A stretch of 44,443 nucleotides of DNA from the sequence record NC_073073.1. One strand, given 5' to 3'. Positions 2,490-43,549 of the stretch are shown piece by piece. A program made the position numbers and the translations under genes. The number at the start of each line of letters is the position of its first letter. Position 1 is the first letter of the stretch. Source of the stretch: Escherichia phage mckay. A model generated the notes under the pieces. It was given only the letters and a program-made list of their open reading frames with translations. It was not told the origin of the DNA and did no database searches.

Positions 2490-3272
2490 ATGGCTAAAGT
2501 CAACCTGAAAAATGTGCGCGTATGTTTCCTGAAAATTTGGGAACGTGATACCCCTAAACAGGATGGGCAAAAACCGGCATACCGTGCCGTGATTCTTCTT
2601 GATAAAGAAGATCCGCAGGTGGACAAAGTGGAAGAGGCAGCGCGCGCAGTGCTCACCGACAAGCTGAAGTCCGAGAAGAACGCCGATAAGTGGATGGACC
2701 GCCACTACGCCCAGGATTCGAAGGAATGCGCAGTTCGCGACGGTGACGAGCGCGACGAAGTGACCGAAGAATTCGAAGGCATGTTGTATATCAACGCCAA
2801 ATCGTTCAAACAGCCTATCATTCAAACGTCACTCGGCGAGAAGCAGACTGAACAAGGTCTGACCATCGACGGCGACGAGATTGAAGGCCAGGAGATCTAC
2901 TCCGGTTGTTATTGCAACGTGTCCCTTGATATTTGGGCATGGAACAATACCAACGGCAAGGGTCTCGGGGCTGGCTTGCTGGGTCTGCGATTCCGTGAAG
3001 ACGGCGAAGCCTTCGGAGGTGGCGGGTCTTCTTGCTCCGATGAAGACCTGGACAACGACGACGAAGACGAAGCACCGCGCAAGTCCAAAAAGTCAAAACG
3101 TCGTGATGTCGATGATGTAGATGACAAGCCGCGCAAGTCCAAGAAATCCAAGCGCCGCGATGACGACGACGATGAGGAAGATGAAAAACCTCGCAAACGT
3201 CGTAAGCCACGCGATGACGAAGATGAGGACGACGACGAAGACGAAGCGCCACGTAAACGTCGCCGCCGTTAA
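2490..3272 (+). CDS. DUF2815-type phage ssDNA-binding protein with repetitive charged C-terminal tail
   Basis: Start chosen at ATG 2490 (MAKVNLKNVRVCF..., GAGGA RBS upstream) rather than ORF-track 2469. N-terminal region resembles DUF2815 SSBs that pair with DUF2800; C-terminus is alternating acidic/basic repeats. Confidence 0.6.
   Translation: MAKVNLKNVRVCFLKIWERDTPKQDGQKPAYRAVILLDKEDPQVDKVEEAARAVLTDKLKSEKNADKWMDRHYAQDSKECAVRDGDERDEVTEEFEGMLYINAKSFKQPIIQTSLGEKQTEQGLTIDGDEIEGQEIYSGCYCNVSLDIWAWNNTNGKGLGAGLLGLRFREDGEAFGGGGSSCSDEDLDNDDEDEAPRKSKKSKRRDVDDVDDKPRKSKKSKRRDDDDDEEDEKPRKRRKPRDDEDEDDDEDEAPRKRRRR
3050..3272 (+). repeat. Imperfect in-frame tandem repeats encoding (D/E)n-APRKSKKSKRR blocks
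   Basis: Repeated gaagacgaagc(a/g)ccgcg(c/t)aa(g/a)... units visible by eye; translate to DEDEAPRKSKKSKRRD / DKPRKSKKSKRRD / EKPRKRRKPRD / DEAPRKRRRR. Confidence 0.6.
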
Positions 3273-3502: not shown

Positions 3503-5790
3503 AAGACTTCGAACGCCTGTTTCTCGATACCGAGACATTTAGCGGGGTGGACCTGAAGAAAGTTGGGGCGTACGCCTACGCAGAGCACCCAACCACCGAG
3601 ATTATGATTTGCACATACGCCATCGACGAGGGCCGCGTGCAGACATGGGATGCCACTGAATCCCCAACAATGCCGCGTGAACTGCGCAAGGCGCTTCGCC
3701 AGGTATCCCGCAAGAAAGCAAAAATCGTGATGGCTAACGGCCTCCTGTTTGACCGCCTGGTTATCCGTGAGAAGTGGGGCATCGACCTGCCGGTAAGCCA
3801 GATCGAAGACACCATGATTATGGCCTTTCGCCACGCGCTGCCCGGTAGCCTAGATATGCAGTGCCAGGTGCTGGGCGTTGACGCAGAGCACGCGAAAGAT
3901 AAGGCAGGCAAGGCGCTGATTAAACGATTCTGTAAGCCCACCCCTAAGACCTACAAAATCCGCCGCTACACACGCGAGACGCACCCCGAAGAATGGGCCA
4001 AATTCTTGCGCTATGCCGCGCTGGATATTGTTGCCATGCGTGAAGTCTACTGGCGCATACCGGACTGGGGTAATACTCAGAAGGAAGATGAAATCCTGCT
4101 CATCGACCAGTTGATTAACGACCGCGGCTTCTACGTTGACGTTGATCTGGCGAACGCCGCGATCAAAGCGGTGCAGGCGCATAAGGAAGAATTGAAGGAA
4201 GAAGCCTGGGAGCGATTTGGTGGTAAACTGACAGGCAATGACTTCCTGCCAATCCTGCGTGATATCGCCCCGGCGTTCACAATCCACAACGCGCAGAAAT
4301 CCACACTTAACGACCTGCTTGAAGACCCGGACTTCCCCGACGAAGGCAAAGCGCTTATCGAAATGCGCCTCGGAGCGTCATCAACGGCATCGACTAAGTA
4401 CAATCCGCTCGTTAACGGCCTATCCGCAGATGGTCGCCGCCGTGGGTGTCTTCAGTATGGCGGCGCAAAGCGCACGCTACGCTGGGCCGGTAAAGGCTTC
4501 CAGCCTCAAAACCTGGCACGCGGCGAGTATAGCGACGACCACGAAGGGAAGATTAAGCGCCGCGAAGGCGAGAGCGACGTCTCGTTTTGGGTCCGGTCGC
4601 ACATGCTCACCAACGGCATCAACTCCCTGTTACGCGGGACCGCACACTGGGCGTATGACATATCGAAGCTGACTGCCTCGACCGTTCGCGGGTGCATTAT
4701 CCCAGCTAAGGGTAAGAAGTTTGTCGTCGCGGACTACTCCAACGTGGAAGGGCGCGGCCTTGCCTGGATCGCTGGCGAGAAAACCGCGCTAATGGTGTTT
4801 AAGGCCGGACGCGATATCTATTGTGAGACCGCCGGTAAGATGTTCGGCCTGGACCCGGACTACATTAAAGCCAACCGCAAGGACTTACGCCAGATCGGTA
4901 AGGCGTGCGAATTGGGACTGGGCTATGGTGGCGGCGTGGCAGCGTTCTTGCAGTTCGCTAAAAACCTGGGCCTCGACCTTTACACTATGGCGGACGTGAT
5001 GAAGGGCACGTTCCCGGATCACATTTGGGCGGCGGCGAAACGCGGCTATGAGTACGCCCGCATTAACGAAGCGAAACGCCCACCGAAGCCTGGCAAGAAG
5101 GACGAGCGACCGACTTACATACTGCCGAAAAACGTATGGCTGACTTGTGACGCCATCAAACGTATGTGGCGCGAGGCTCACCCGAAGACGGTCGCCTTTT
5201 GGGCCGAGCTTGAGGACGCGGTGTTATGTGCAATACGCAATCCTGGCAAAGCATACTGGGCGGGCGCGCACGTTCGCCCGGATGGCAGGAAAGCGCTCAA
5301 AATTGTTCGAACGAAGGCGAAGCACGACCCCACCTTTGACGAGGAGCGCGACGACCCGAACGCCGCGGGGTGGTGGTTGAAAATTGAGTTGCCGTCGGGG
5401 CGCATCATGAGCTACCCCGGCATCGCGCTGTCTGTCACTACCGAGATTGACGAAGACACCGGCAAGAAGCGCACCAGCACACGCATTAAATATCAGGGCG
5501 AGAATCAGACGACGCGCCAGTGGGGATTCCAGTATACCTACGGCGGCAAACTGACGGAGAACATCGTGCAGGCGTTGTGTCGCGATATTCTCGCATGGTC
5601 TATGCCTGGCGTTGAAGCTGCGGGCTATGAAATCGTTCTATCGGTGCATGATGAATTGATCACAGAAGTGCCGGACACCGACGACTACACGACCGAGGAG
5701 CTTTGCGCGCTGATGTGCGACCTGCCTGTATGGGCGAAAGGCTTCCCACTTGCCGCCGAAGGCGATTGTATGTATCGATACCGCAAGTAG
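3499..5790 (+). CDS. DNA polymerase, family A, with 3'-5' exonuclease domain
   Basis: 763 aa; exo motif FLDTETFS; Pol A motif A DYSNVEGR, motif B RQIGKACELGLGYGGG, motif C VHDEL. Confidence 0.9.
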   Translation: MKDFERLFLDTETFSGVDLKKVGAYAYAEHPTTEIMICTYAIDEGRVQTWDATESPTMPRELRKALRQVSRKKAKIVMANGLLFDRLVIREKWGIDLPVSQIEDTMIMAFRHALPGSLDMQCQVLGVDAEHAKDKAGKALIKRFCKPTPKTYKIRRYTRETHPEEWAKFLRYAALDIVAMREVYWRIPDWGNTQKEDEILLIDQLINDRGFYVDVDLANAAIKAVQAHKEELKEEAWERFGGKLTGNDFLPILRDIAPAFTIHNAQKSTLNDLLEDPDFPDEGKALIEMRLGASSTASTKYNPLVNGLSADGRRRGCLQYGGAKRTLRWAGKGFQPQNLARGEYSDDHEGKIKRREGESDVSFWVRSHMLTNGINSLLRGTAHWAYDISKLTASTVRGCIIPAKGKKFVVADYSNVEGRGLAWIAGEKTALMVFKAGRDIYCETAGKMFGLDPDYIKANRKDLRQIGKACELGLGYGGGVAAFLQFAKNLGLDLYTMADVMKGTFPDHIWAAAKRGYEYARINEAKRPPKPGKKDERPTYILPKNVWLTCDAIKRMWREAHPKTVAFWAELEDAVLCAIRNPGKAYWAGAHVRPDGRKALKIVRTKAKHDPTFDEERDDPNAAGWWLKIELPSGRIMSYPGIALSVTTEIDEDTGKKRTSTRIKYQGENQTTRQWGFQYTYGGKLTENIVQALCRDILAWSMPGVEAAGYEIVLSVHDELITEVPDTDDYTTEELCALMCDLPVWAKGFPLAAEGDCMYRYRK

Positions 5791-7216: not shown

Positions 7217-8641
7217 ATGGCACGATTCCGACGCCGCGAATATCAGAAGTTGATTACCGCGTTCATCCTCAAGCATAAGCGATGTAATATCTGGGCGACA
7301 ATGGGGTCGGGTAAAACCGGCGCGACAATGTGGGCGCTGAATAAAATGTTCCAGACGGGCATCCTGTCCCACCAGGAGGACCGCGTACTGGTTCTGGCCC
7401 CGCTGCGCGTTGCATCCGGCACCTGGCCCCCGGAGCAGGAGAAATGGCGGTTCTCATCCCTGCTGGTCGTAGACGGCACTGGACCAGAGAAGGACCGCAT
7501 AGCCGCGCTGGAGAGTAACGCTAACGTGGTTTGTGTTAACTACGATGTGGTTGAGTGGCTGGTCGACTATTACGGCGATGCGTGGCCCTTTACGGTCGTT
7601 GTTGCCGATGAATCGACTAAGCTGAAAGGCTATCGTAGCAAGCAGGGGAGCAAGCGCGCCCGCGCACTGGCCGCGATTGCACATAAACACGTCAAGCGAT
7701 GGATTAACCTTACCGGCACACCAGCGCCAAACGGGCTAAAAGACTTATGGGGTCAGACGTGGTTTGTCGACGGTGGCGAACGCCTCGGCAGTAGCTATAA
7801 GGCATTTACCGACCGCTGGTTTATTAGCAAGCCTGTTAAGCCTGGCAGCTTCACTATGCAGATCGCCCCGCTCAAGAACTCCGAGAAAGAAATACAACAA
7901 CGCCTGTCAGACGTATCCCTTACTGTTGACGCGGCTGAATACTTCGGGTGCGACAAGCCAATATATACGCCGGTTGTTGTGGACCTACCGAAGAAAGCCC
8001 GTAAGATTTACGACCAGTTTGAAAGCGAGCTATTTGCCGAACTGGAAAGCGGAACAGTGGAAGCGGCGAACGCCGCGGCGAAGACAATTAAGTGCCTTCA
8101 GCTTGCTTCCGGCGCGGTGTATAAGGTGGACGAAGACGGCGAACGGACCGACGAGTGGGTGAAGATTCACGACGCGAAGCTGGACGCGCTGGAAAGTATC
8201 GTGGAGGAGTTGAACGGAGCGCCGTTGCTCGTTGCGTACCAATACAAACATGACCTGGCACGTCTCAAGAAGAAATTTCCGCACGGCGTTGCGCTGGGTA
8301 AAGGTAAGCAGGGCAATAAGGATATGGAAGCGTGGAACAGAGGCGAGATCCCCATCATGTTTGCGCACCCGGCATCGGCGGGCCACGGCCTTAACTTGCA
8401 GGACGGCGGTCATCACCTGGCAATCTTCTCCGATACCTGGAACTTTGAGCACTTTTCGCAGATCGTTGAACGTATCGGGCCGGTTCGCCAGATGCAAGCA
8501 GGACACCCCCGTCCGGTATTCGTCTACATTATCCAGGCGCGCGGAACACTGGACGAACTGGTCGCCGAGCGTCGCGACAGTAAGCGGGATATTCAGGACG
8601 ACTTGATGGAATACATGAAAGCTAAAAAGGCGCGCAAATGA
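7217..8641 (+). CDS. SNF2-family (superfamily 2) DNA helicase
   Basis: Start at ATG 7217 (MARFRRREYQ); Walker A ATMGSGKTGA, DExx-type VVADESTKLK, C-terminal helicase region. Confidence 0.8.
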   Translation: MARFRRREYQKLITAFILKHKRCNIWATMGSGKTGATMWALNKMFQTGILSHQEDRVLVLAPLRVASGTWPPEQEKWRFSSLLVVDGTGPEKDRIAALESNANVVCVNYDVVEWLVDYYGDAWPFTVVVADESTKLKGYRSKQGSKRARALAAIAHKHVKRWINLTGTPAPNGLKDLWGQTWFVDGGERLGSSYKAFTDRWFISKPVKPGSFTMQIAPLKNSEKEIQQRLSDVSLTVDAAEYFGCDKPIYTPVVVDLPKKARKIYDQFESELFAELESGTVEAANAAAKTIKCLQLASGAVYKVDEDGERTDEWVKIHDAKLDALESIVEELNGAPLLVAYQYKHDLARLKKKFPHGVALGKGKQGNKDMEAWNRGEIPIMFAHPASAGHGLNLQDGGHHLAIFSDTWNFEHFSQIVERIGPVRQMQAGHPRPVFVYIIQARGTLDELVAERRDSKRDIQDDLMEYMKAKKARK

Positions 8642-21607: not shown

Positions 21608-24250
21608 TCATCGTTTGTAAAGTACACCACCCGGTTTGGTCGCTTTCACAATCTCAGCCTTTACCGACTCGGTGATTTGCTTTCCGAACGCCTGCGCGGT
21701 GCGAGGGTCCGGTCCGCTAACACTGGTGTCCGTCTTACCGGTCCCCATGTTAACGTTGGTCGTTACAATCATCCCACCGCCCACACCGGCAGCGGCAACG
21801 CCCAGTTTCCCGTCTGGCCCGCGCTTCAGTGGCATGATGGCCTCGGGTCCGGCCTCACCCATCAATCCTGCGCCCTTAGCGAACGCCTGAACGCCATAAC
21901 TGAAAAAGGTAGGCTGGCTTACCACTTTCCCCGAATAGGCCGCCAGATTGCCTCCTGCGTACGCTCCGCCGTCCGCATTCTTAGTGAGGCCCGAGAAGAT
22001 AGCGCCGAACAATCCGTTTTTGCCGCCGTCGCCACCGAAAGCGCTAACGATCGACTTGAACGCCTGCGAGGTAGCCAGCTTGATTAACTCGCTCAGGATG
22101 GATTTGACCATATCCTTCGCGTTAATCTTGCCCGTCTCGAAAAATTCGTTCATCGTGTCCTGCATAGCGCTGAACGTGAATTTTGTGAGTGACGTCATCT
22201 GCGTATATCCGTTACCCATCTCATCCACGCTATCCTTAAGCCCGCGACTGAATCCATCCCATAGCGAGGCGTTAGCGCCGGTCTGCGCCTCCTGCACTTC
22301 CCGCAGCTTAGACACCGCCTTGTCTATATCGGTATCGTTAGCGCCAACCCTCTTCAGACGGTCGATTAGCTGCAATTCTTCGCGCAGGTTAGCCGCTTCG
22401 CGCGTAGACAGTGCGTAGCCCGCAGCGGTGGCTTTTATCTCGGCGTTCTGATTCTTGAGGAAAGCGTCGACCTGCGCGTGGGCTTTGATCTGCTTCTCTT
22501 TCGCATCCAGCAATTTGGCTTCTTCGACGATCTGCTCGCGGACTTCCTTCACGCGTCCAAATTCGACCATCTGCTGCTTTTCGGCTGCCGTTAGTGCTCT
22601 TTCTTTGCTCGCAGCGATTAACTGCTCATTATCCGCGATCAGCTTGTTTAGGGCCGCTTGAGCGCGTTGCGTGCGGGTCTGCGTCGATGCATTGGCTTCG
22701 ATCTGCTTGCCAGACTCACGAAGCTGGGCTAATTCGCTTCGCGCGACTTCCAGCATTTTCAGACCGGCATCGACTCGAATTGCCGCGGCCTTTTTCGGTG
22801 CGGGGTCTTTGTAGCGTTCGTTGACCTGCTTCACCGCCTCGGCTAGTTCTTTCTCGTTAATAACACCGCGCTTATTCAGCAAATTGAGGCGGGCGATCTC
22901 GTCGGCTCGCCGCTTCGCGTTGGTTGCGTACTCCTTCTCAAACGCGGCGCGGTCGCGGGCGGTGCGGTTTGCCTCCTCGTTCGCCTTTGCTGCTTCATCC
23001 GCGGCGCTGGCGCTGTCTCGCTCTGCACGGTTGCGCAGGGTGAGCGACGCCACTACCTTTTCCTGGGCGACCAGTTCGCTGTAAAGCATGTTAATACGCG
23101 CTTTCTGCGCTTCGGTCATCACCCCACCGGCAGCGTTTACCGCTTTCATCTCGGCATAGTACGCCGTGGTCATGCGCTGCAAGGACTCACGCGCTTTCAT
23201 CTCGGACTCATTCGAGGACTGCGCGCGGCCCACATCAAGGATTGCATCCCACATAGATTTAGCTGCCGATGTGACGACGTTCATCGAACGCTCAAGCGTA
23301 CCCATGTTGGACTTAATATCGTTGGTCATAGTGGTAAACGACGCTGCGGCTGTTTTGTTAGCCAGCGCGACCGCGTCTGTCTCGCGACCCATATCCACAA
23401 GCGACTGAACCTGCTGGATCTGCGCTTCGTTTACGACGTGATACTTATCTGCCAGTGCGCGCAAACCGCCTACTGGGTCAGTTGACAGCTTCGCTACCGC
23501 CGCGACAACATCTTCGATCGGCTGGCCCGACGTCTTTGCAAAGTCATTAACCACCTTTGCTAACCCGCCGAAATCCGCTCCGGCTTTAACCCCAGCCGCC
23601 GCCAGTGACTGAATTGTGTCACGCGTCTTGCGGAATGATCCGCCCATGCGCTCGGCGTTCTCGGATAGCACCAGGATCTGGTTTGCAGTGAGGCCGGAAA
23701 TGTTACCTGACAGCGCCAGCGTCTTGTTAAGCGCTGCGACCTGGTTCTCTGCGCGGGACGTAATTGCCACCCCTACGCCTAACGTTGCCGTTAGTGCTGC
23801 AATGCCGATCCCTACCGGACCGAGGACGCCCGCAACATAACGCAGCGTGTTACCAAATCCGCCGAACGCCCCAGTTAACTGCGGTAACTGCTGAAGCATA
23901 ACGCGGTGTACTGGCATCCCCATCTCAAGCGTAACTGCGATATCCTGTAACTGGAATGCGGCGTTACGCGAGGCAAAGCCCAGGTTTTTGGTCGACATGC
24001 CTAACCTGTTGGCAAGTCGCTCCTGTTTCGTCATGCCATCGGCTGCGCGCTGCGATTCAGTCGCCAGCTTTTCCATTCCGCCCGCGGCGTCACTCGTCAC
24101 CTTTTTGGATTTGCCGAGGGTGTCGTTTAATTTCTTAACCTTGTTTTCTGTGTTCTCGGATTTCTGTGCGAAGGAGTCCAGCACAGTATTCGCCGTTCTG
24201 ATTTGTGCAACATCAGCCTTTAGCGTGATGCCTGCTGCCTGATCTGCCAT
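21608..24250 (-). CDS. Tail tape measure protein
   Basis: 880 aa, alpha-helical A/Q/K/E-rich with central hydrophobic segments; follows the G/G-T chaperone gene. Confidence 0.85.
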   Translation of the reverse strand: MADQAAGITLKADVAQIRTANTVLDSFAQKSENTENKVKKLNDTLGKSKKVTSDAAGGMEKLATESQRAADGMTKQERLANRLGMSTKNLGFASRNAAFQLQDIAVTLEMGMPVHRVMLQQLPQLTGAFGGFGNTLRYVAGVLGPVGIGIAALTATLGVGVAITSRAENQVAALNKTLALSGNISGLTANQILVLSENAERMGGSFRKTRDTIQSLAAAGVKAGADFGGLAKVVNDFAKTSGQPIEDVVAAVAKLSTDPVGGLRALADKYHVVNEAQIQQVQSLVDMGRETDAVALANKTAAASFTTMTNDIKSNMGTLERSMNVVTSAAKSMWDAILDVGRAQSSNESEMKARESLQRMTTAYYAEMKAVNAAGGVMTEAQKARINMLYSELVAQEKVVASLTLRNRAERDSASAADEAAKANEEANRTARDRAAFEKEYATNAKRRADEIARLNLLNKRGVINEKELAEAVKQVNERYKDPAPKKAAAIRVDAGLKMLEVARSELAQLRESGKQIEANASTQTRTQRAQAALNKLIADNEQLIAASKERALTAAEKQQMVEFGRVKEVREQIVEEAKLLDAKEKQIKAHAQVDAFLKNQNAEIKATAAGYALSTREAANLREELQLIDRLKRVGANDTDIDKAVSKLREVQEAQTGANASLWDGFSRGLKDSVDEMGNGYTQMTSLTKFTFSAMQDTMNEFFETGKINAKDMVKSILSELIKLATSQAFKSIVSAFGGDGGKNGLFGAIFSGLTKNADGGAYAGGNLAAYSGKVVSQPTFFSYGVQAFAKGAGLMGEAGPEAIMPLKRGPDGKLGVAAAGVGGGMIVTTNVNMGTGKTDTSVSGPDPRTAQAFGKQITESVKAEIVKATKPGGVLYKR

Positions 24251-24314
24251 TATGCAGTCCCCTTTTTTATGCAGTTGCCGATTGATATTGTATCAGCGAT
24301 TTCAAAACAAACCT

Positions 24315-24487
24315 TATTCAGTCTCAGACGAGGGGGGCCATTGACCCCCGTCTAGTCTGAAAGACTGGGGTGCTGTCCCGCTGTCCCGATCGGCTGAAAA
24401 CCGCGGCAGCACTGGCGGGGACGGGGTGCTGTCCCGTTTTGTCCCGCCCCTTGTTTGTCCCGCTTTCTGTCCCGCTTACTTTATGCA
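24315..24487. repeat. Copy A of a ~175-bp noncoding element (imperfect hairpin plus TGTCCCGC iterons)
   Basis: ttattcagtctcagacgaggggggccaTtgacccccgtctagtctgaaagactggg and ggtgctgtcccgTtttgtcccgccccttgtttgtcccgctttCtgtcccgcttaCtttatgca recur nearly identically at 40963-41136. Confidence 0.7.
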
Positions 24488-24637
24488 ATAAAACTGCATA
24501 GGTATGCACATTTACAGGGCGTGACAAAACGGGACGTCCCGCCTGTCCCGCTTTGAGTTTATGCAATGAAAGTGATTAGATATGCGGTTTTACAGAGGCG
24601 GGACAAAACGGGACGTCCCGCCTGTCCCGCTTCATTA
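24480..24637. repeat. Two tandem ~79-bp direct repeats, each ending in the 12-bp palindrome CGGGACGTCCCG plus CCTGTCCCGCTT
   Basis: Palindrome at 24530-24541 and 24609-24620; each unit begins with tttatgcaat(a/g)aaa and contains ttacag(g/a)g. Confidence 0.65.
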
Positions 24638-24958
24638 TGCGGGGTTCTGCTGCGCCATCTCATCAAGCGCGATTCGTTCCATTAGCTTGATATCTTTAAA
24701 CGCGCGCTGCTCGTTTTCGATACCGTGCATCTTAAATAACCACTCCAGCACGCCGTAGTCGATGCCGTATGCGCCACCAAATCCGGTGCGCCATTGCGTG
24801 GAGCAATCTGTGAAGACTGCGACTACCTTCGCGTTGTCGGGCCATAGCGCAACAGGTGGACAAACATCTTCGGGGGCCGCACCCCATAAACTTGCGGCTA
24901 AATCTTCGGAGGGTGGCGGCGGGCCATAAAAGCGTCGCGCCGCCTCAATTAGTTTTTT
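24635..24958 (-). CDS. gpT-like extension reached by programmed -1 frameshift from the chaperone gene (G-T fusion)
   Basis: Slippery heptamer A_AAA_AAC (+ strand gtttttt, 24952-24958) lies just before the chaperone stop; the -1 frame is then open for ~105 codons to TAA at 24635-24637 and has no start codon of its own. Confidence 0.6.
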   Translation of the reverse strand, partial: KKLIEAARRFYGPPPPSEDLAASLWGAAPEDVCPPVALWPDNAKVVAVFTDCSTQWRTGFGGAYGIDYGVLEWLFKMHGIENEQRAFKDIKLMERIALDEMAQQNPA

Positions 24959-25311
24959 TCACGCAATCCCATCAGTTCGAGATAGTACGACGTGTGGAAC
25001 ACACCGAACGCGCGTGGGTAGTTGACCACCAGGCGGCGGACGTTCTCCGAGTTAAATTCGTCTGGCAGATTCCAGCCTTCCGCGACGTGCATGATGGCCT
25101 CGACCATAACGTTAAAGCCGTCCGGGTCATTGTCGTCATATTCCGACAGCTTTCGTTCGGTGTCCTGCATGGTTTGCGAAAATTCGTCGATCGGGCGGTG
25201 GCGGACGGTAAAAGTCATCTTGCCTGGTTCGTTCTCACCTGGGCGCGGGATCTCAATCGGCAGCTTAAAGGTCGGCTTAGGGTCAAGTGTAAAGAGTGGT
25301 GCTTTAGCCAT
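24949..25311 (-). CDS. Tail assembly chaperone (lambda gpG-like)
   Basis: Start taken at ATG 25311 (MAKAPLFTL, GGAG RBS) rather than the ORF-track TTG at 25326; sits between the major tail protein and tape measure genes with a slippery site at its 3' end. Confidence 0.7.
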   Translation of the reverse strand: MAKAPLFTLDPKPTFKLPIEIPRPGENEPGKMTFTVRHRPIDEFSQTMQDTERKLSEYDDNDPDGFNVMVEAIMHVAEGWNLPDEFNSENVRRLVVNYPRAFGVFHTSYYLELMGLREKN

Positions 25312-25326
25312 TGTAGTATTCTCCAA

Positions 25327-26589: not shown

Positions 26590-27182
26590 TATTTCACCTT
26601 CGAATTGATTTCTGCCGCTACGACGCGAACAATCCCCGCGGGCGCTTGTTTACTCCAGCCATACTCAAGTCGCTGCGCGTATGGCACGTTGTTAGTAAAC
26701 CAGATCGACCCGTATTCACTGGAATCGTAATGTGCCAGCACTTCACGCCCAGCGGCTAATGTTGCCGTTCCGGCCTTGTCAACGCGGTCAATAGCGCCAA
26801 CAGCCGGGCGGTCGAACGTCACCTGCCAGTTTCCCCGGAAGCGTCCGCCGGTGTAATTCTTCGCGGCCCAGCCACGCTGGCGGAACGTGACGTTGCCGTT
26901 TTTAGTTTTGAATGAGATAAGCACACTGGCGTGCTTCTTCTGCCCGCGCTTCAGTTTGCCGCCATTCTTGCGGCGCTGTGCAGCGTTCACCTTGTTTGCG
27001 TGCTGGCGGGCCATCGCATAAGCCCGGTTAATCTTCCACCGCTTCGGGTCGCCCACCGGCGAGAACTCAATAAGGCGTCCGAGTATTTGCATCCCGTACG
27101 CCCGCACCGCCTTATCGTTGTTCTCCTTCGTCTTATCCACCCACGTAGCAATAGTGGCGGCGAATGAGTAGACTTCAGCCAC
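26589..27182 (-). CDS. Head-tail joining protein (HK97 gp10-like), putative, GTG start
   Basis: 197 aa; GGRFRGNWQVTF recalls the gp10-family motif; GTG start with GAGGGG RBS. Confidence 0.5.
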   Translation of the reverse strand: MAEVYSFAATIATWVDKTKENNDKAVRAYGMQILGRLIEFSPVGDPKRWKINRAYAMARQHANKVNAAQRRKNGGKLKRGQKKHASVLISFKTKNGNVTFRQRGWAAKNYTGGRFRGNWQVTFDRPAVGAIDRVDKAGTATLAAGREVLAHYDSSEYGSIWFTNNVPYAQRLEYGWSKQAPAGIVRVVAAEINSKVK

Positions 27183-35480: not shown

Positions 35481-36030
35481 TAATCACCCTGGCCTTTGCC
35501 GGCAGGTTCCACTACGACGTCGCCGTTATCATCTTCGTCGTCATCCAGCGGCACATCGTCGCGGACTCCGTGGTTTGCTTTAAGCAGGAACGTAGCGAAG
35601 CCAGCCGCGATGGTCACGCCGCCAGCTTCCATCAGGAAAGTTTTCTGCAACTCCATAGCATCCGCCATCGCCTCGGCGAACTCCTCATGTGCTCGCGCCC
35701 AGCGATACAGGCAAGCTACGCCCACACCGATTTCCGCGGCAAATCGACCGAAGGTTGGCATTTTGTTGCGGGGGATTACTTGCGCAGCGCCTTTATCGGA
35801 GTAGTTGACCTGCCAGGCGTCGGCGTCGGCAAAATAGCGGCGAAGCTGGTCGCAGTAAACGGATCTGTAGTCAGTAGGGCGTCCACATTTGCCGCCTTTA
35901 CGGCGCTTGCCGTACTCGATTTCAGGTCCGAGATTGGTATGCTCGGTTTGCTCTCCTGGTTTACGGCGCGGGGTAACTGCTACTCGTCCGTCCAGTTTGG
36001 CGCGTCGGCCCTTAACTTTGATTTCTGCCA
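35480..36030 (-). CDS. Terminase small subunit, putative
   Basis: Start taken at ATG 36030 (MAEIKVKGRR); GRPTDYRSVYCDQ...PTFGRFAAEIGVGVACLYRWARAHEEFAEA resembles small-terminase HTH regions; acidic C-terminus; directly upstream of TerL. Confidence 0.6.
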
Positions 36031-40820: not shown

Positions 40821-40962
40821 ATGCGCATGAAAAAGTTGATCGCTATCTGCTGCAGCTGCAAACTGCATTTTTCACTCAGCATAATACAACTCGCATTGGT
40901 TGCCTAGTTCATCAACGACCGCAATTCACATCATGTTGCCGTGTATTATGCAATCCCGGATT

Positions 40963-41136
40963 TTATTCAGTCTCAGACGAGGGGGGCCACTGACCCCCGT
41001 CTAGTCTGAAAGACTGGGCTTTGTCCCGCCTGTCCCGCCCCTCTGGAAGCCGCGCCATCCGGGCGGGACATGGGGTGCTGTCCCGCTTTGTCCCGCCCCT
41101 TGTTTGTCCCGCTTTTTGTCCCGCTTAGTTTATGCA
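40963..41136. repeat. Copy B of the ~175-bp hairpin-plus-TGTCCCGC-iteron element, next to the primase gene
   Basis: Near-identical to 24315-24487; holds about six TGTCCCGC iterons at roughly 10-13 bp spacing plus an inverted GCGGGACA. Confidence 0.7.
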
Positions 41137-41169
41137 GTTTTAGTGCATAACTATTCATTATATTCACAC

Positions 41170-41284
41170 TACACGGCAACCAATACGACCAGATAAAAAC
41201 ACCTAAAATGGCAACCAATGCGCGCAAAATTTAATCTTTTAGCAATAGGGGAATCCCCACATCGGCAACCAATACGCGCAAAAT
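41170..41284. repeat. Tandem direct repeats: 3x GCAACCAAT and 2x CGCGCAAAATTTAATCTTT
   Basis: GCAACCAAT at 41176, 41211, 41265; CGCGCAAAATTTAATCTTT at 41221-41239 and 41275-41293 (the second copy runs 9 bp past the feature end into the primase stop region); lies between the primase stop and copy B. Confidence 0.55.
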
Positions 41285-43549
41285 TTAATCTTTCAGGTCG
41301 TCATCGGTCGCCGAAAGCGTGATGGGTATACTCGTTTTGATGACGATATTCGACGACCCATAGATGGCCCCGGTGTGCGGATCTGTATAAAAACCAAGTA
41401 CGCCGCGCTCAACCATATCGTCGATTGCCTTCGTCGATGTGCCACCTTTTGCCAATCCCGCCTGGCGGACAATTGCCGATTTACTGAATCCGGTATGGTC
41501 CGGGTTTTCTTCCATCAGTTTTTCCAGCGCCGCATAAAGCACTTTCTCTTTTTCGTTGCGCGGTCCTGCGGCATTCTCCTCCTTAACTGCGGCCTTGCCC
41601 GCGGCCTTCGCCTGTTCGATGGCGAACGGTGCCAGGGCGACCGGTACGAGATACAGGGTCTCGTCGCGCGGCGTGGATGCGATCGGCTTGACGTCCCAAC
41701 CGGCAACGACGTCACCGAAGTCTGGCCCGGTGCTGGTGGACTGGTGTGCTTCGAACGCTTCGGACTTGCGGAGATCAACCTTAACCTTGCACTTGAGCAG
41801 GACGAATCCGCGCGGCGCTTGCTTGATGCCGTTACGTGCCTTTTCGTGATACAGGTTCAATTGGCCTGGCTGGTTGTCGTCAGGCTGTTCCAGGAAGAAC
41901 GCAGAATCGACAGCACCATGCAGCGCGCCGGACCCACGGGGAGATCTGCTGCCGTTTGCACCTTTCGCTGGGTGGTGGATGACGCCCGCACTGCCGCCTG
42001 TGTTTTCCGCAATGGCCTTCAGCGCTTTGACCACTTCGCCCATATCGCTGGCGTTGTTCTCGTCGAACGGTTTAGCATCGGCGGACCGCAACGCAACAGT
42101 CTGGTTGAGTGAGTCGAACGCCACCAGGCCAACCGGTTCGCCGTTGGCGGTGCGGTTGATAAAGCTGATAACTTCACGCAAGCCCGACTTGCTGGTGATA
42201 TCCCAGCCGCGTGATTGCAGGTCGATAATGTGCAGCTTGTCCAGGTCGTGCTCATATTTGATCTGCAGTGCTTCCTTACGCTGGTTGGAGGCTTCTCCGC
42301 CTTCCGCATCGAAATAGAAACAATGAGACTGGACGACCTTCGCACCGCCGAACGGAATACCCGCGGCAACCGCACCCATTTGACCCAGCACGTAGAACGA
42401 TTTACCGATGTTCGATTCGCCAGCCATATACCAGGTCGATTTAAAGTTAATCAGGCCTTCGATGATCGGGTCGTGTTTACTGAATAGTGCGACCGGTTCG
42501 TTATCCAGGTCAGCGTCGGTACATACGCCGTACTCGTCGCCGTCTCCGACCGCATCAACAATGTGGTCATATAAGGATTCGACTTCCTCGTCGTCCAGAC
42601 CTGGCAGGATGGCGGCGATTTGCTTACGCGACATGTTGTGCGGCTCGACGTTCAGGTGGTCCGGTATCCCGATAAGACGTAGCGCCAGGTGCTGGTGTCT
42701 GTTCAGTTCCGAGCAACACTCGTTGCCGGTATGCATACACTTGAAACGGATCTCGCCATCCTTGACCATGATAGCCGTCGACCCTTCGCCGCTGTGCAGA
42801 TGTTCGTTAGGACACGGCACTTCATAACCACGACCGGACGACAGCGGTTCGAATCCTGCCTGGAAGCACCAGTCCAGAATGCCGTCCGCCACGCCGTCAT
42901 CGCCCTGGGTCAGTTCGCGTCGTACTTCCTCTTTTTCCACTCCCAGCTTATCAGCCAGGCGAAGCAGACGACGGACGCGGGCACGTTTGCCGTAGTGACA
43001 CTTAACAACCGATTGCTGGTGAGGCAGGTACATAAGGCGGTTTGTGTCTTTCGTGCAATCATCGAAGTCCACATCTGACAGGCCCAGTTGGTGTAATAGT
43101 GCATACTGTACGCGGCCCAGGTCTTCCGCCGGTACAGGCTTATCGGTGAGCACCAGGAAACGGGCGCAACGCGTGCCGCCCTTCAGCGGGTGGCGGTCGC
43201 CGGTGGTGGTGTGAAATACATGTTCCAGTCCCGCGTCGATGAACGCCTTACGGCAGCGGCGCAGGGTGCGGGTGTCGGTGCGGTCAATATCAAAGAACAG
43301 GATCGAGCGGTCCACCGCACTGGTCTTGCGGCGTAAGCCGTCACTGGTATAAGCCACAATGCCATCGGCCTTACGCTTGCGGCGCGCATACTCCGCTTTA
43401 TCTTCCGTCTTGTTGATATGCACCGAGGATATTTCTTTCGCATCATTGATAAATTCGAAAAACTCTTCGGTAGTCATCCGGAAGTTTTCCGCCCTGGCTT
43501 TTTCGCCTTTTTTAGCGGGTCGTGTTACAGCGAATTTAATTAAGCTCAT
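41285..43549 (-). CDS. DNA primase-helicase (primase-polymerase-like N-terminus, RecA/DnaB-like ATPase, C-terminal wHTH-like)
   Basis: 754 aa; N-terminal ILFFDIDRTD (DxD) with CPNEHLH...C...C zinc-binding-like region; central Walker A GESNIGKS; adjacent to iteron-like repeats. Confidence 0.7.
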   Translation of the reverse strand: MSLIKFAVTRPAKKGEKARAENFRMTTEEFFEFINDAKEISSVHINKTEDKAEYARRKRKADGIVAYTSDGLRRKTSAVDRSILFFDIDRTDTRTLRRCRKAFIDAGLEHVFHTTTGDRHPLKGGTRCARFLVLTDKPVPAEDLGRVQYALLHQLGLSDVDFDDCTKDTNRLMYLPHQQSVVKCHYGKRARVRRLLRLADKLGVEKEEVRRELTQGDDGVADGILDWCFQAGFEPLSSGRGYEVPCPNEHLHSGEGSTAIMVKDGEIRFKCMHTGNECCSELNRHQHLALRLIGIPDHLNVEPHNMSRKQIAAILPGLDDEEVESLYDHIVDAVGDGDEYGVCTDADLDNEPVALFSKHDPIIEGLINFKSTWYMAGESNIGKSFYVLGQMGAVAAGIPFGGAKVVQSHCFYFDAEGGEASNQRKEALQIKYEHDLDKLHIIDLQSRGWDITSKSGLREVISFINRTANGEPVGLVAFDSLNQTVALRSADAKPFDENNASDMGEVVKALKAIAENTGGSAGVIHHPAKGANGSRSPRGSGALHGAVDSAFFLEQPDDNQPGQLNLYHEKARNGIKQAPRGFVLLKCKVKVDLRKSEAFEAHQSTSTGPDFGDVVAGWDVKPIASTPRDETLYLVPVALAPFAIEQAKAAGKAAVKEENAAGPRNEKEKVLYAALEKLMEENPDHTGFSKSAIVRQAGLAKGGTSTKAIDDMVERGVLGFYTDPHTGAIYGSSNIVIKTSIPITLSATDDDLKD

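Follow-up and report, generated by a model that had tools for sequence, protein, structure and literature searches.

What is a block of repeated, non-coding DNA doing in the tail operon of a virulent siphovirus? In Escherichia phage mckay, a Dhillonvirus whose record NC_073073.1 (44,443 nucleotides, hereafter the window) we analysed in full, a 385-bp non-coding spacer separates the tail chaperone T from the tape-measure gene, and two tandem 79-bp repeats form the upstream end of this spacer; the genes at the locus lie on the minus strand, and the 501 bases around the repeats are 100% identical to Escherichia phage bob. An earlier note on this DNA had read the repeats as paired sites for a dimeric DNA-binding protein, and had also suggested that they could form structures in the late RNA. 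We found that they belong to an element, region A, that has a paralogue, region B, directly past the helicase-primase gene (both names are taken from the GenBank record of Sodalis phage SO-1). The reading we prefer, to which we give somewhat better than an even chance, is that region B would be the replication origin and region A either a second origin or an enhancer like the crr of satellite phage P4, with the same protein bound at both.

The 79-bp repeats contain head-to-head iterons

Tandem Repeats Finder, run on the whole window, placed the array at 24467-24632 (2.1 copies, 85% matches, score 239), which bears out the two tandem units of the earlier note and makes this by far the strongest tandem array in the window; the two units share 97% identity over their 36-nt ends. 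The perfect 12-bp palindrome seen in each unit, CGGGACGTCCCG, is likewise real and occurs exactly twice in 44.4 kb, 79 bp apart (coordinates in Table 1), further copies in the window appearing only at two mismatches, which is chance level. The described position directly after the stop of the frameshifted chaperone also holds, the first iteron beginning 3 nt past the T stop.

The palindrome consists of two head-to-head iterons and forms the middle of a 34-bp block with four GGGAC half-sites; in block 1 two of these are direct and two inverted, and the AT content is 26%. The proposal of paired dimer sites thus survives in part: binding by a protein fits the arrangement and is predicted, but the sites are not two isolated palindromes; they are head-to-head GGGAC elements within a set of about 21 copies at two paralogous loci. 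Beyond the palindromic blocks and their AT-rich boxes lies a core array of four direct iterons that closes with one inverted GGGAC at 24418-24422, followed by further iterons and a composite hairpin.

The paralogue of region A beside the helicase-primase gene

A stretch of 195 nt in region A (24314-24508) is repeated at 40963-41157 with 82-85% identity, the two regions lying 16.6 kb apart. Common to both are GCGGGACA iterons at equal spacing (those of region B, at 41079, 41089, 41105 and 41117, are spaced identically to those of region A), AT-rich boxes and a composite hairpin. In these boxes the AT fraction is 69-72%, compared with 45% in the window as a whole; AT-rich box 2 of region A corresponds to the box at 41124-41170 in region B, and AT-rich box 1, which bears TTGCATAAA, is akin to the TGAATAGTTATGCA box of region B. 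Judged by this alignment, region A is a diverged duplicate of region B.

The iteron pentamer is concentrated at these two loci. There are 14 copies of GGGAC in 24375-24628 and 7 in 41023-41122, so that 21 of the 68 in the window fall within 354 bp, or 0.8% of its length; of the heptamer TGTCCCG there are 18 copies where 6.1 are expected, and regions A and B hold 16 of them. Outside the iteron regions (24370-24630 and 41020-41125) GGGAC occurs 47 times in 44 kb, and whole-window dinucleotide shuffles give about 77; this scarcity may reflect avoidance of stray initiator sites.

Parts of this arrangement are already visible in public records. The SO-1 entry (NC_013600) annotates a 'region A' and a 'region B' with direct, inverted and palindromic repeats that resemble each other, the end of gp16 being the start of its region A, and the GenBank entries of phages bob and jat carry bare repeat_region features at the repeat DNA.

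Region A is conserved as a set of half-sites

The earlier note had named absence from related genomes as grounds for giving up its proposal. The opposite is the case: region A is present in 157 phage records, essentially all those of Dhillonviruses. In an alignment of 14 Dhillonviruses that spans the whole spacer, all 14 have both 79-bp units, and 62% of spacer columns are invariant, compared with 23-44% of third codon positions in the genes on either side. The columns of the hairpin module are 85% invariant, equal to first and second codon positions, those of GGGAC are 76% invariant, and CTGATACAAT is unchanged in every aligned genome.

The exact palindrome is less constant than its parts. 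Block 1 keeps its GGGACGTCCC in 13 of the 14 genomes; 8 of 14 show GGGACAGGGGTGCTGTCCC in unit 2, where 7 nt separate the two members of an inverted pair; and block 2 is swapped for GGGACAGGGGTGCTGTCCCGATCTGTCCC in 8 of 14 relatives, its half-sites retained and its spacer altered. A relative with 69% identity in the helicase-primase has the GGGACGTCCC palindrome in its region B. By these comparisons, what is conserved is the set of half-sites and not the exact 12-mer, and the invariance of its columns indicates that region A is under purifying selection. The two-copy state is also widespread: of 16 Dhillon-type viral contigs in IMG/VR that matched the hairpin 20-mer TCTTTCAGACTAGACGGGGG, 14 carry it twice, and the two single-copy contigs are one that ends inside region A and one from the 68%-identity lineage (L187/L240), whose available sequence reaches region B only.

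Two other readings of the spacer can be set aside. The small 'hypothetical protein' open reading frames (ORFs) annotated across the spacer in some records are excluded because indels of 1 nt and 11 nt fall inside the 80-aa ORF at 24324-24566; their frame is not kept among relatives, and in the same alignment conservation follows the motifs, with no codon periodicity. A host-derived dispersed repeat, similar to a repetitive extragenic palindrome (REP) or a miniature inverted-repeat transposable element (MITE), is not supported, with 0 copies in 5,426 complete E. coli genomes (20,395 records, searched in distant mode for the region A-type element). The palindrome itself, which the earlier note had suggested looking for elsewhere in the host genome, was found in none of these genomes.

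Relatives keep the architecture and change the iteron

Helicase-primase homologues of 37-69% protein identity have the same architecture 3' of the gene, each lineage with an iteron of its own. The carriers at 37-49% identity are Enterobacter phage phiEap-2, Salmonella phage St162, Klebsiella phage VLCpiS11a and several uncultivated contigs. The shared order is the 14-mer TGAATAGTTATGCA, repeated or half-repeated 21 bp on; three or four direct iterons and one inverted; a spacer; more iterons; a hairpin of three parts; the motif ACGGCA(A/G)C; and a sigma-70-like promoter. Iterons differ by lineage (CGGACA, (T)CCGACA, AGGGATA, GGGGAGA, GGGGATG and TTGCGAG, with CGCCCC in Edwardsiella phage eiAU), and at least eight different sequences occur among the relatives.

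The hairpin modules of ten lineages also differ in sequence, and all of them fold as single strands, with z-scores of -2.1 to -4.4 (region A: -4.4) and only 0-6 of 200 shuffles folding equally well; in several lineages an inverted iteron lies in the central loop. Scanning viral contigs with the 14-mer TGAATAGTTATGCA returned mostly chance matches and about eight real elements. Past the helicase-primase genes of Kagunavirus and Jerseyvirus proper the element was not found, and the large intergenic regions there look different. By inspection the TGAATAGTTATGCA box partly resembles a DnaA box and an IHF or CRP site, resemblances that are not conserved across lineages, and we rejected these assignments.

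Two side observations concern the surroundings of the element. In Cornell-like relatives the origin-like element is enclosed as a whole between the two copies, about 260 bp apart, of a 10-bp direct repeat, ATGTTGGCTG (3531 and 3788 in contig L204, 12706 and 12977 in St162, and also in contigs L214 and L196). An unrelated 55-kb viral contig, IMGVR_UViG_3300037153_000557, has at about 7239-7420 the 14-mer TGAATAGTTATGCA, with TGGACA/CGGACA repeats and a palindrome behind it; the ORF that begins just downstream has a start that, read by eye, is Cys-rich and zinc-finger-like.

A second locus occurs in more than one lineage

A second locus is not confined to Dhillonviruses. In eiAU, paralogous stretches lie past the helicase-primase gene and just upstream of the tape-measure gene, the same two positions as in Dhillonviruses; they share 52 nt at 88% identity, the CGCCCC motif that is eiAU's own and a related hairpin. 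VLCpiS11a has a second TTGCGAG cluster at 35650-35935, paralogous to its own region B at 5030-5290 over 74 nt at 81% identity, this time between the head-morphogenesis and spanin genes and so at a site different from the Dhillonvirus region A. In both phages the iterons have changed in concert at the two loci of one genome. The spacers of regions A and B in Dhillonviruses are distinct from each other and lineage-stable, which argues against recent copying between them; together with the concerted change of iterons, this would place the constraint in a shared binding protein and not in recent copying.

These observations bear on another account of region A: an ectopic copy of the origin region, made by illegitimate recombination, would have grown by the local 79-bp tandem duplication and been tolerated as a by-product, selfish or without function; a variant of this account has it as a packaging signal. 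Tandem duplications arise readily at palindromes, phiEap-2 and St162 manage without a second locus, the position of that locus varies between lineages, and several GenBank records are linearised in or beside A or B. We nevertheless consider this account very improbable. Region A is kept with both units in about 157 records, it is markedly more conserved than synonymous sites, and both the separate, stable spacers and the concerted iterons of eiAU and VLCpiS11a speak against an idle copy; as to packaging, the terminase genes are about 11 kb away, two pac sites per genome would be unusual, and record ends near a repeated sequence are an expected assembly artefact. The records in question are PNS1, BEK2-2, CHD5UKE2, UAE_MI-01, Maverick, Kente, eiAU, phiEap-2 and SaI_NFG_5579, and their ends near A or B are probably assembly breakage or an arbitrary start at a repeat; the phiEap-2 paper gives no mapped termini.

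Iteron class follows the winged helix of the helicase-primase

Which protein, then, would read the iterons? The helicase-primase unites in one chain a primase, a RepA-like helicase core of the AAA_25 family and, at its C-terminal end, a winged helix formed by the last ~90 residues. Across nine relatives that differ in their iterons, identity is 78-80% in the primase and helicase parts and 57-59% in the linker plus winged helix, and the winged helix is the most divergent domain of the protein, at 57%. A segment where the predicted recognition helix begins sorts with the iteron class: KGGTSTK goes with CGGGACA, DGGRRRPA with CCGACA (three lineages), GGGN[QS]RRR with CGGACA (two lineages), KGGDRYKIL with GGGGAGA (three lineages), KGGGRYAAL with GGGGATG and AGGNRRPAM with AGGGATA. 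A homologue search with the C-terminal 170 aa alone found one fragment.

The Cro/CI-like helix-turn-helix (HTH) gene just upstream is discordant: one identical HTH protein is found alongside GGGGAGA, CGGACA and CCGACA, and a second, near-identical one alongside CGGACA, GGGGATG and CCGACA. Because the iteron class tracks the winged helix and not the neighbouring HTH gene, we favour the former, and the comparison points to the helicase-primase winged helix as the putative iteron reader. The generic dimeric regulator of the earlier note gives way on the same comparative data, which favour this winged helix and a role in replication.

A rival possibility is that the GGGAC repeats are operators for a phage transcription factor encoded elsewhere, for instance a repressor or an activator of middle or late genes, regions A and B regulating the promoters that follow them. 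In its favour, each region precedes a promoter-like element where a block of genes begins, operator arrays commonly combine direct with inverted repeats, and next to the helicase-primase gene of Dhillonviruses, and likewise of the 69%-identity lineage with GGGACA iterons, there is a gene for a protein resembling HTH_23 and sigma-70 region 4. We regard this as quite unlikely. In Cornell-like relatives the adjacent HTH protein is excluded as the reader because it is identical across three iteron classes; the place just 3' of a replication gene, the AT-rich box and the hairpin are classical origin anatomy; and sites 60-340 bp upstream of the promoter-like element would be unusually far away and numerous for an activator.

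Regions A and B as candidate initiator-binding loci

We read region B as an origin because iterons, an AT-rich box and a hairpin stand together directly 3' of a replication gene. Among the features that mark iteron origins, both a cluster of direct repeats at near-helical spacing and an adjacent AT-rich region, predicted to unwind, are seen here. In the mechanism that we propose, the C-terminal winged helix of the helicase-primase would bind the iterons of region B as initiator, the adjacent AT box would melt, and the hairpin module may serve as a loading or priming structure. Region A would be a second initiator-binding locus, acting as a second origin or as a cis-acting replication enhancer comparable to crr of P4, and its two extra units of palindrome plus AT box, being symmetric, could seat the initiator in both orientations. 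We infer each of the central steps, namely that the helicase-primase binds, that replication starts there and that A contributes something beyond B.

Several points weigh against this reading. The GC skew follows gene orientation and gives no origin signal. The iterons are 50-300 bp from the end of the winged-helix coding sequence and the HTH gene is 2.3 kb away, and physical linkage alone would create some concordance between iteron and winged helix, so it is a confounder of the comparison above. The single iteron cluster of phiEap-2 and of St162 means that a second locus is not required by the replication module. Region A lies within or between late transcripts and is followed by a conserved promoter-like element, and a transcriptional role for it, in addition or instead, is possible. 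The literature that we searched on origins or repeats of Dhillonvirus, Guernseyvirinae, SO-1 and HK578 does not describe the element.

The transcriptional alternative can be made specific: region A would be a terminator or attenuator joined to a promoter in the late operon, its palindromes and hairpin folding in the mRNA after T, so that transcription would stop or pause there or the transcript be processed, and TGATACAAT restarting transcription of the tape-measure and distal tail genes and so setting the ratio of chaperone to tape measure. The annotations of HK578 and vB_EcoS_WFI call the palindrome a rho-independent terminator, TTTTG follows CGGGACGTCCCG on the sense strand, the RNA of region A folds strongly (z -7.6) with an invariant extended -10-like element after it, and both A and B are at operon junctions with promoter-like sequences behind them. 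Against this, a terminator scan of 23800-25200 found no canonical intrinsic terminator on the minus (sense) strand, its hits being on the opposite strand; the stem that adjoins the T-run has no more than 4-6 bp, 8 of the 14 genomes have lost the T-run in unit 2, and the large hairpin module has no adjacent U-tract in A or B. Rfam gave 0 matches at gathering thresholds over the whole window. A terminator would also leave unexplained some 20 copies of the same pentamer in both orientations at fixed spacing, and lineage-specific motifs that track the DNA-binding domain of a replication protein. We therefore judge the terminator-promoter cassette unlikely as the explanation of region A; the terminator calls of the GenBank records are weakly supported, and coexistence of such a function with a role in replication is possible.

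A further RNA-level candidate, a CsrA/Rsm-type sponge small RNA built on GGA motifs, was rejected: the motifs occur in both orientations, there is no promoter-terminator pair, and some lineages use the GGA-free motifs TTGCGAG and CGCCCC.

Likenesses to known replication systems

The closest functional analogue of region A may be the crr of P4, a second iteron locus of two tandem repeats that is required in cis. P4 has an 8-mer iteron, TGTTCACC, and here too short 8-mers (GCGGGACA) occupy two loci kilobases apart, one of which (crr in P4, region A here) consists of tandem repeats with several iterons each. The P4 alpha protein combines a primase, a helicase and a C-terminal winged helix that binds the origin (PMC2777425), and the helicase-primase resembles it in holding primase, hexameric helicase and C-terminal winged helix in one polypeptide. 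The two systems differ in the helicase core, which is AAA_25/RepA-like here and SF3/D5-like in P4, in the iteron sequence, and in the placing of the second locus, here inside the tail-gene operon of a virulent siphovirus. Homology to P4 alpha, D5 or SF3 was not found in Pfam (AAA_25 only), and a PDB sequence search gave nothing significant. With a P4-like layout and neither homology to P4 alpha nor its iteron, the phage element would work like P4 without being a member of its family.

As in origins of the pRN1 and phage BIP-1 type, the candidate origin lies directly downstream of the gene for a multifunctional replication protein with a winged helix at its end. In pRN1 the origin is a stem-loop just 3' of the replication gene, conserved in structure and divergent in sequence (PMC4234260), and the hairpins here likewise keep their structure while their sequences diverge. 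Unlike the present element, pRN1 lacks an iteron array and its protein is a prim-pol joined to SF3; the hairpin here is part of a larger module with iterons and AT boxes, present twice per genome.

Among theta origins of the iteron type, lambda ori, the IncQ RSF1010 oriV (RepA/RepB'/RepC) and the SaPI ori all set direct repeats beside an AT-rich unwinding box and a palindrome or ssi-type hairpin, and specificity differs between related iteron-origin replicons, as the iterons do here. RSF1010 RepA and the helicase core here are members of one Pfam family (AAA_25). These systems use a separate initiator (O, RepC or Rep), unlike the one here, which is apparently fused to the helicase-primase, and to our knowledge none has a paralogous second locus in a structural operon. 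The layout of the 79-bp unit also recalls the core origins of SV40 and papillomaviruses, whose central palindrome holds four pentanucleotides as inverted pairs, with an AT tract and an imperfect palindrome at its sides; the likeness is no more than an analogy, as helicase class, host domain and sequences differ.

What is new in this arrangement, and what might follow

Some of this was known: the annotators of SO-1 had noticed the repeat regions, and P4 already offers an iteron origin that has two loci and an initiator fused to the helicase-primase. New are the occurrence in this family, the specificities, at least eight in number, and the second locus inside a morphogenesis operon. None of the GenBank annotations named above ties the repeats to the helicase-primase winged helix or to lineage-specific iterons, and we found no description of a Dhillonvirus replication origin in the literature searched. 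A wider generalisation, which we put forward tentatively and hold to be doubtful, is that Dhillonviruses, Eiauvirus and part of Guernseyvirinae share one self-contained initiator-origin module, whose helicase-primase would read the iterons of its own lineage through a swappable C-terminal winged helix of at least eight specificities, and that several lineages independently placed a second functional copy of the origin in the morphogenesis operon.

Dhillonviruses are among the commonest coliphage isolates, and are found in the BASEL collection and in many therapy and biocontrol panels. If A and B are initiator-binding loci, the replication starts of this whole group of enterobacterial siphoviruses become directly testable, and the matched winged helices and iterons would form a natural series for studying how recognition between initiator and origin evolves; the same parts could be used in phage engineering, for instance as orthogonal replicons or for conditional replication. 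Region A would then be an unusual case in which replication and late transcription share one stretch of DNA between a tail chaperone and a tape-measure gene, and its firing might be coupled to late transcription. When phages co-infect a cell, their iteron specificity classes might behave as incompatibility groups do in plasmids. The reading would also explain the spurious ORFs, the 'terminator' calls and the records broken at the repeat.

Table 1 Coordinates of regions A and B and of adjoining genes in the window
Feature	Position	Strand	Remarks
Tail chaperone G	24949-25326	minus	Pfam Phage_TAC_4
T, frameshift extension of tail chaperone	24638-24952 (open)	minus	Translation ends ...DEMAQQNPA
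Stop TAA of T, upstream boundary of region A	24635-24637	minus	From translation
Palindromic block 1, unit 1	24597-24630	minus	GCGGGACAGGCGGGAC followed by GTCCCGTTTTGTCCCGCC; 12-bp palindrome 24609-24620
AT-rich box 1, unit 1	24552-24596	minus	69% AT; ...GCATA..CTA...TTGCATAAA
Palindromic block 2, unit 2	24518-24551	minus	12-bp palindrome 24530-24541; one half-site degenerate (GTCAC)
AT-rich box 2	24476-24517	minus	69% AT; TATGCA-N9-TGCATA inverted repeat
Core iteron array, four direct GCGGGACA	24418-24475	minus	Starts 24475, 24463, 24447, 24437; spacing 12/16/10
Two more direct iterons, CGGGACAGCGGGACA	24374-24388	minus	After short spacer
Composite hairpin / nested palindrome	24319-24367	minus	CAGTCT TTC AGACT AGACGGGGG TCAATGG CCCCCCTCGTCT GAGACTG
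Extended -10 promoter-like element TGATACAAT	24287-24295	minus	~37 nt upstream of tape-measure ATG; by-eye reading
CGGCAAC heptamer	24274-24280	minus	After TGATACAAT
Tape-measure gene, 880 aa	Start ATG 24250	minus	Directly past region A
Helicase-primase gene, 754 aa	41285-43549	minus	Pfam AAA_25; PHROG replicative helicase-primase
Region B, paralogue of region A and predicted primary origin	40963-41170	minus	Directly past helicase-primase stop
TGAATAGTTATGCA in the region B AT box	41145-41158	plus, as TGCATAACTATTCA	
Region B iterons	41022-41037 and 41079-41123; inverted one 41064-41070	minus	
Region B hairpin module	40968-41016	minus	Paralogous to region A hairpin

The promoter-like element TGATACAAT was not among the hits of a consensus promoter scan, which requires a -35.

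Other motifs in the window

The most over-represented 7-mer family in the genome is CGGCA[AG]C, with CGGCAGC at 51 copies against 15 expected and CGGCAAC at 49 against 20 (11 by shuffles). The roughly 100 copies are divided equally between the strands; one lies past the hairpin module in region A, and another does so in region B (40935-40941). The same over-representation is seen in phiEap-2, St162, eiAU and SO-1. As a marker of replication direction the motif was discarded, since it shows no strand (polarity) switch.

A second motif, GCAACCAA, occurs 21 times against 1.9 expected, mostly as intergenic pairs or palindromes beside TATA-like boxes (2410/2426, 9654/9671, 11575/11587, 30220/30234, 40774/40805 and 41176/41211/41265), and looks like an operator for a conserved regulator. 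Three of its copies stand between the helicase-primase stop and region B, within a 54-bp tandem repeat at 41210-41296, and it flanks both iteron loci of eiAU (26868-27152 and 42932-43000). Runs of GAAGAYGAC-type repeats at 1-240 and 3040-3250 correspond to acidic, Asp/Glu-rich stretches in early-region ORFs.

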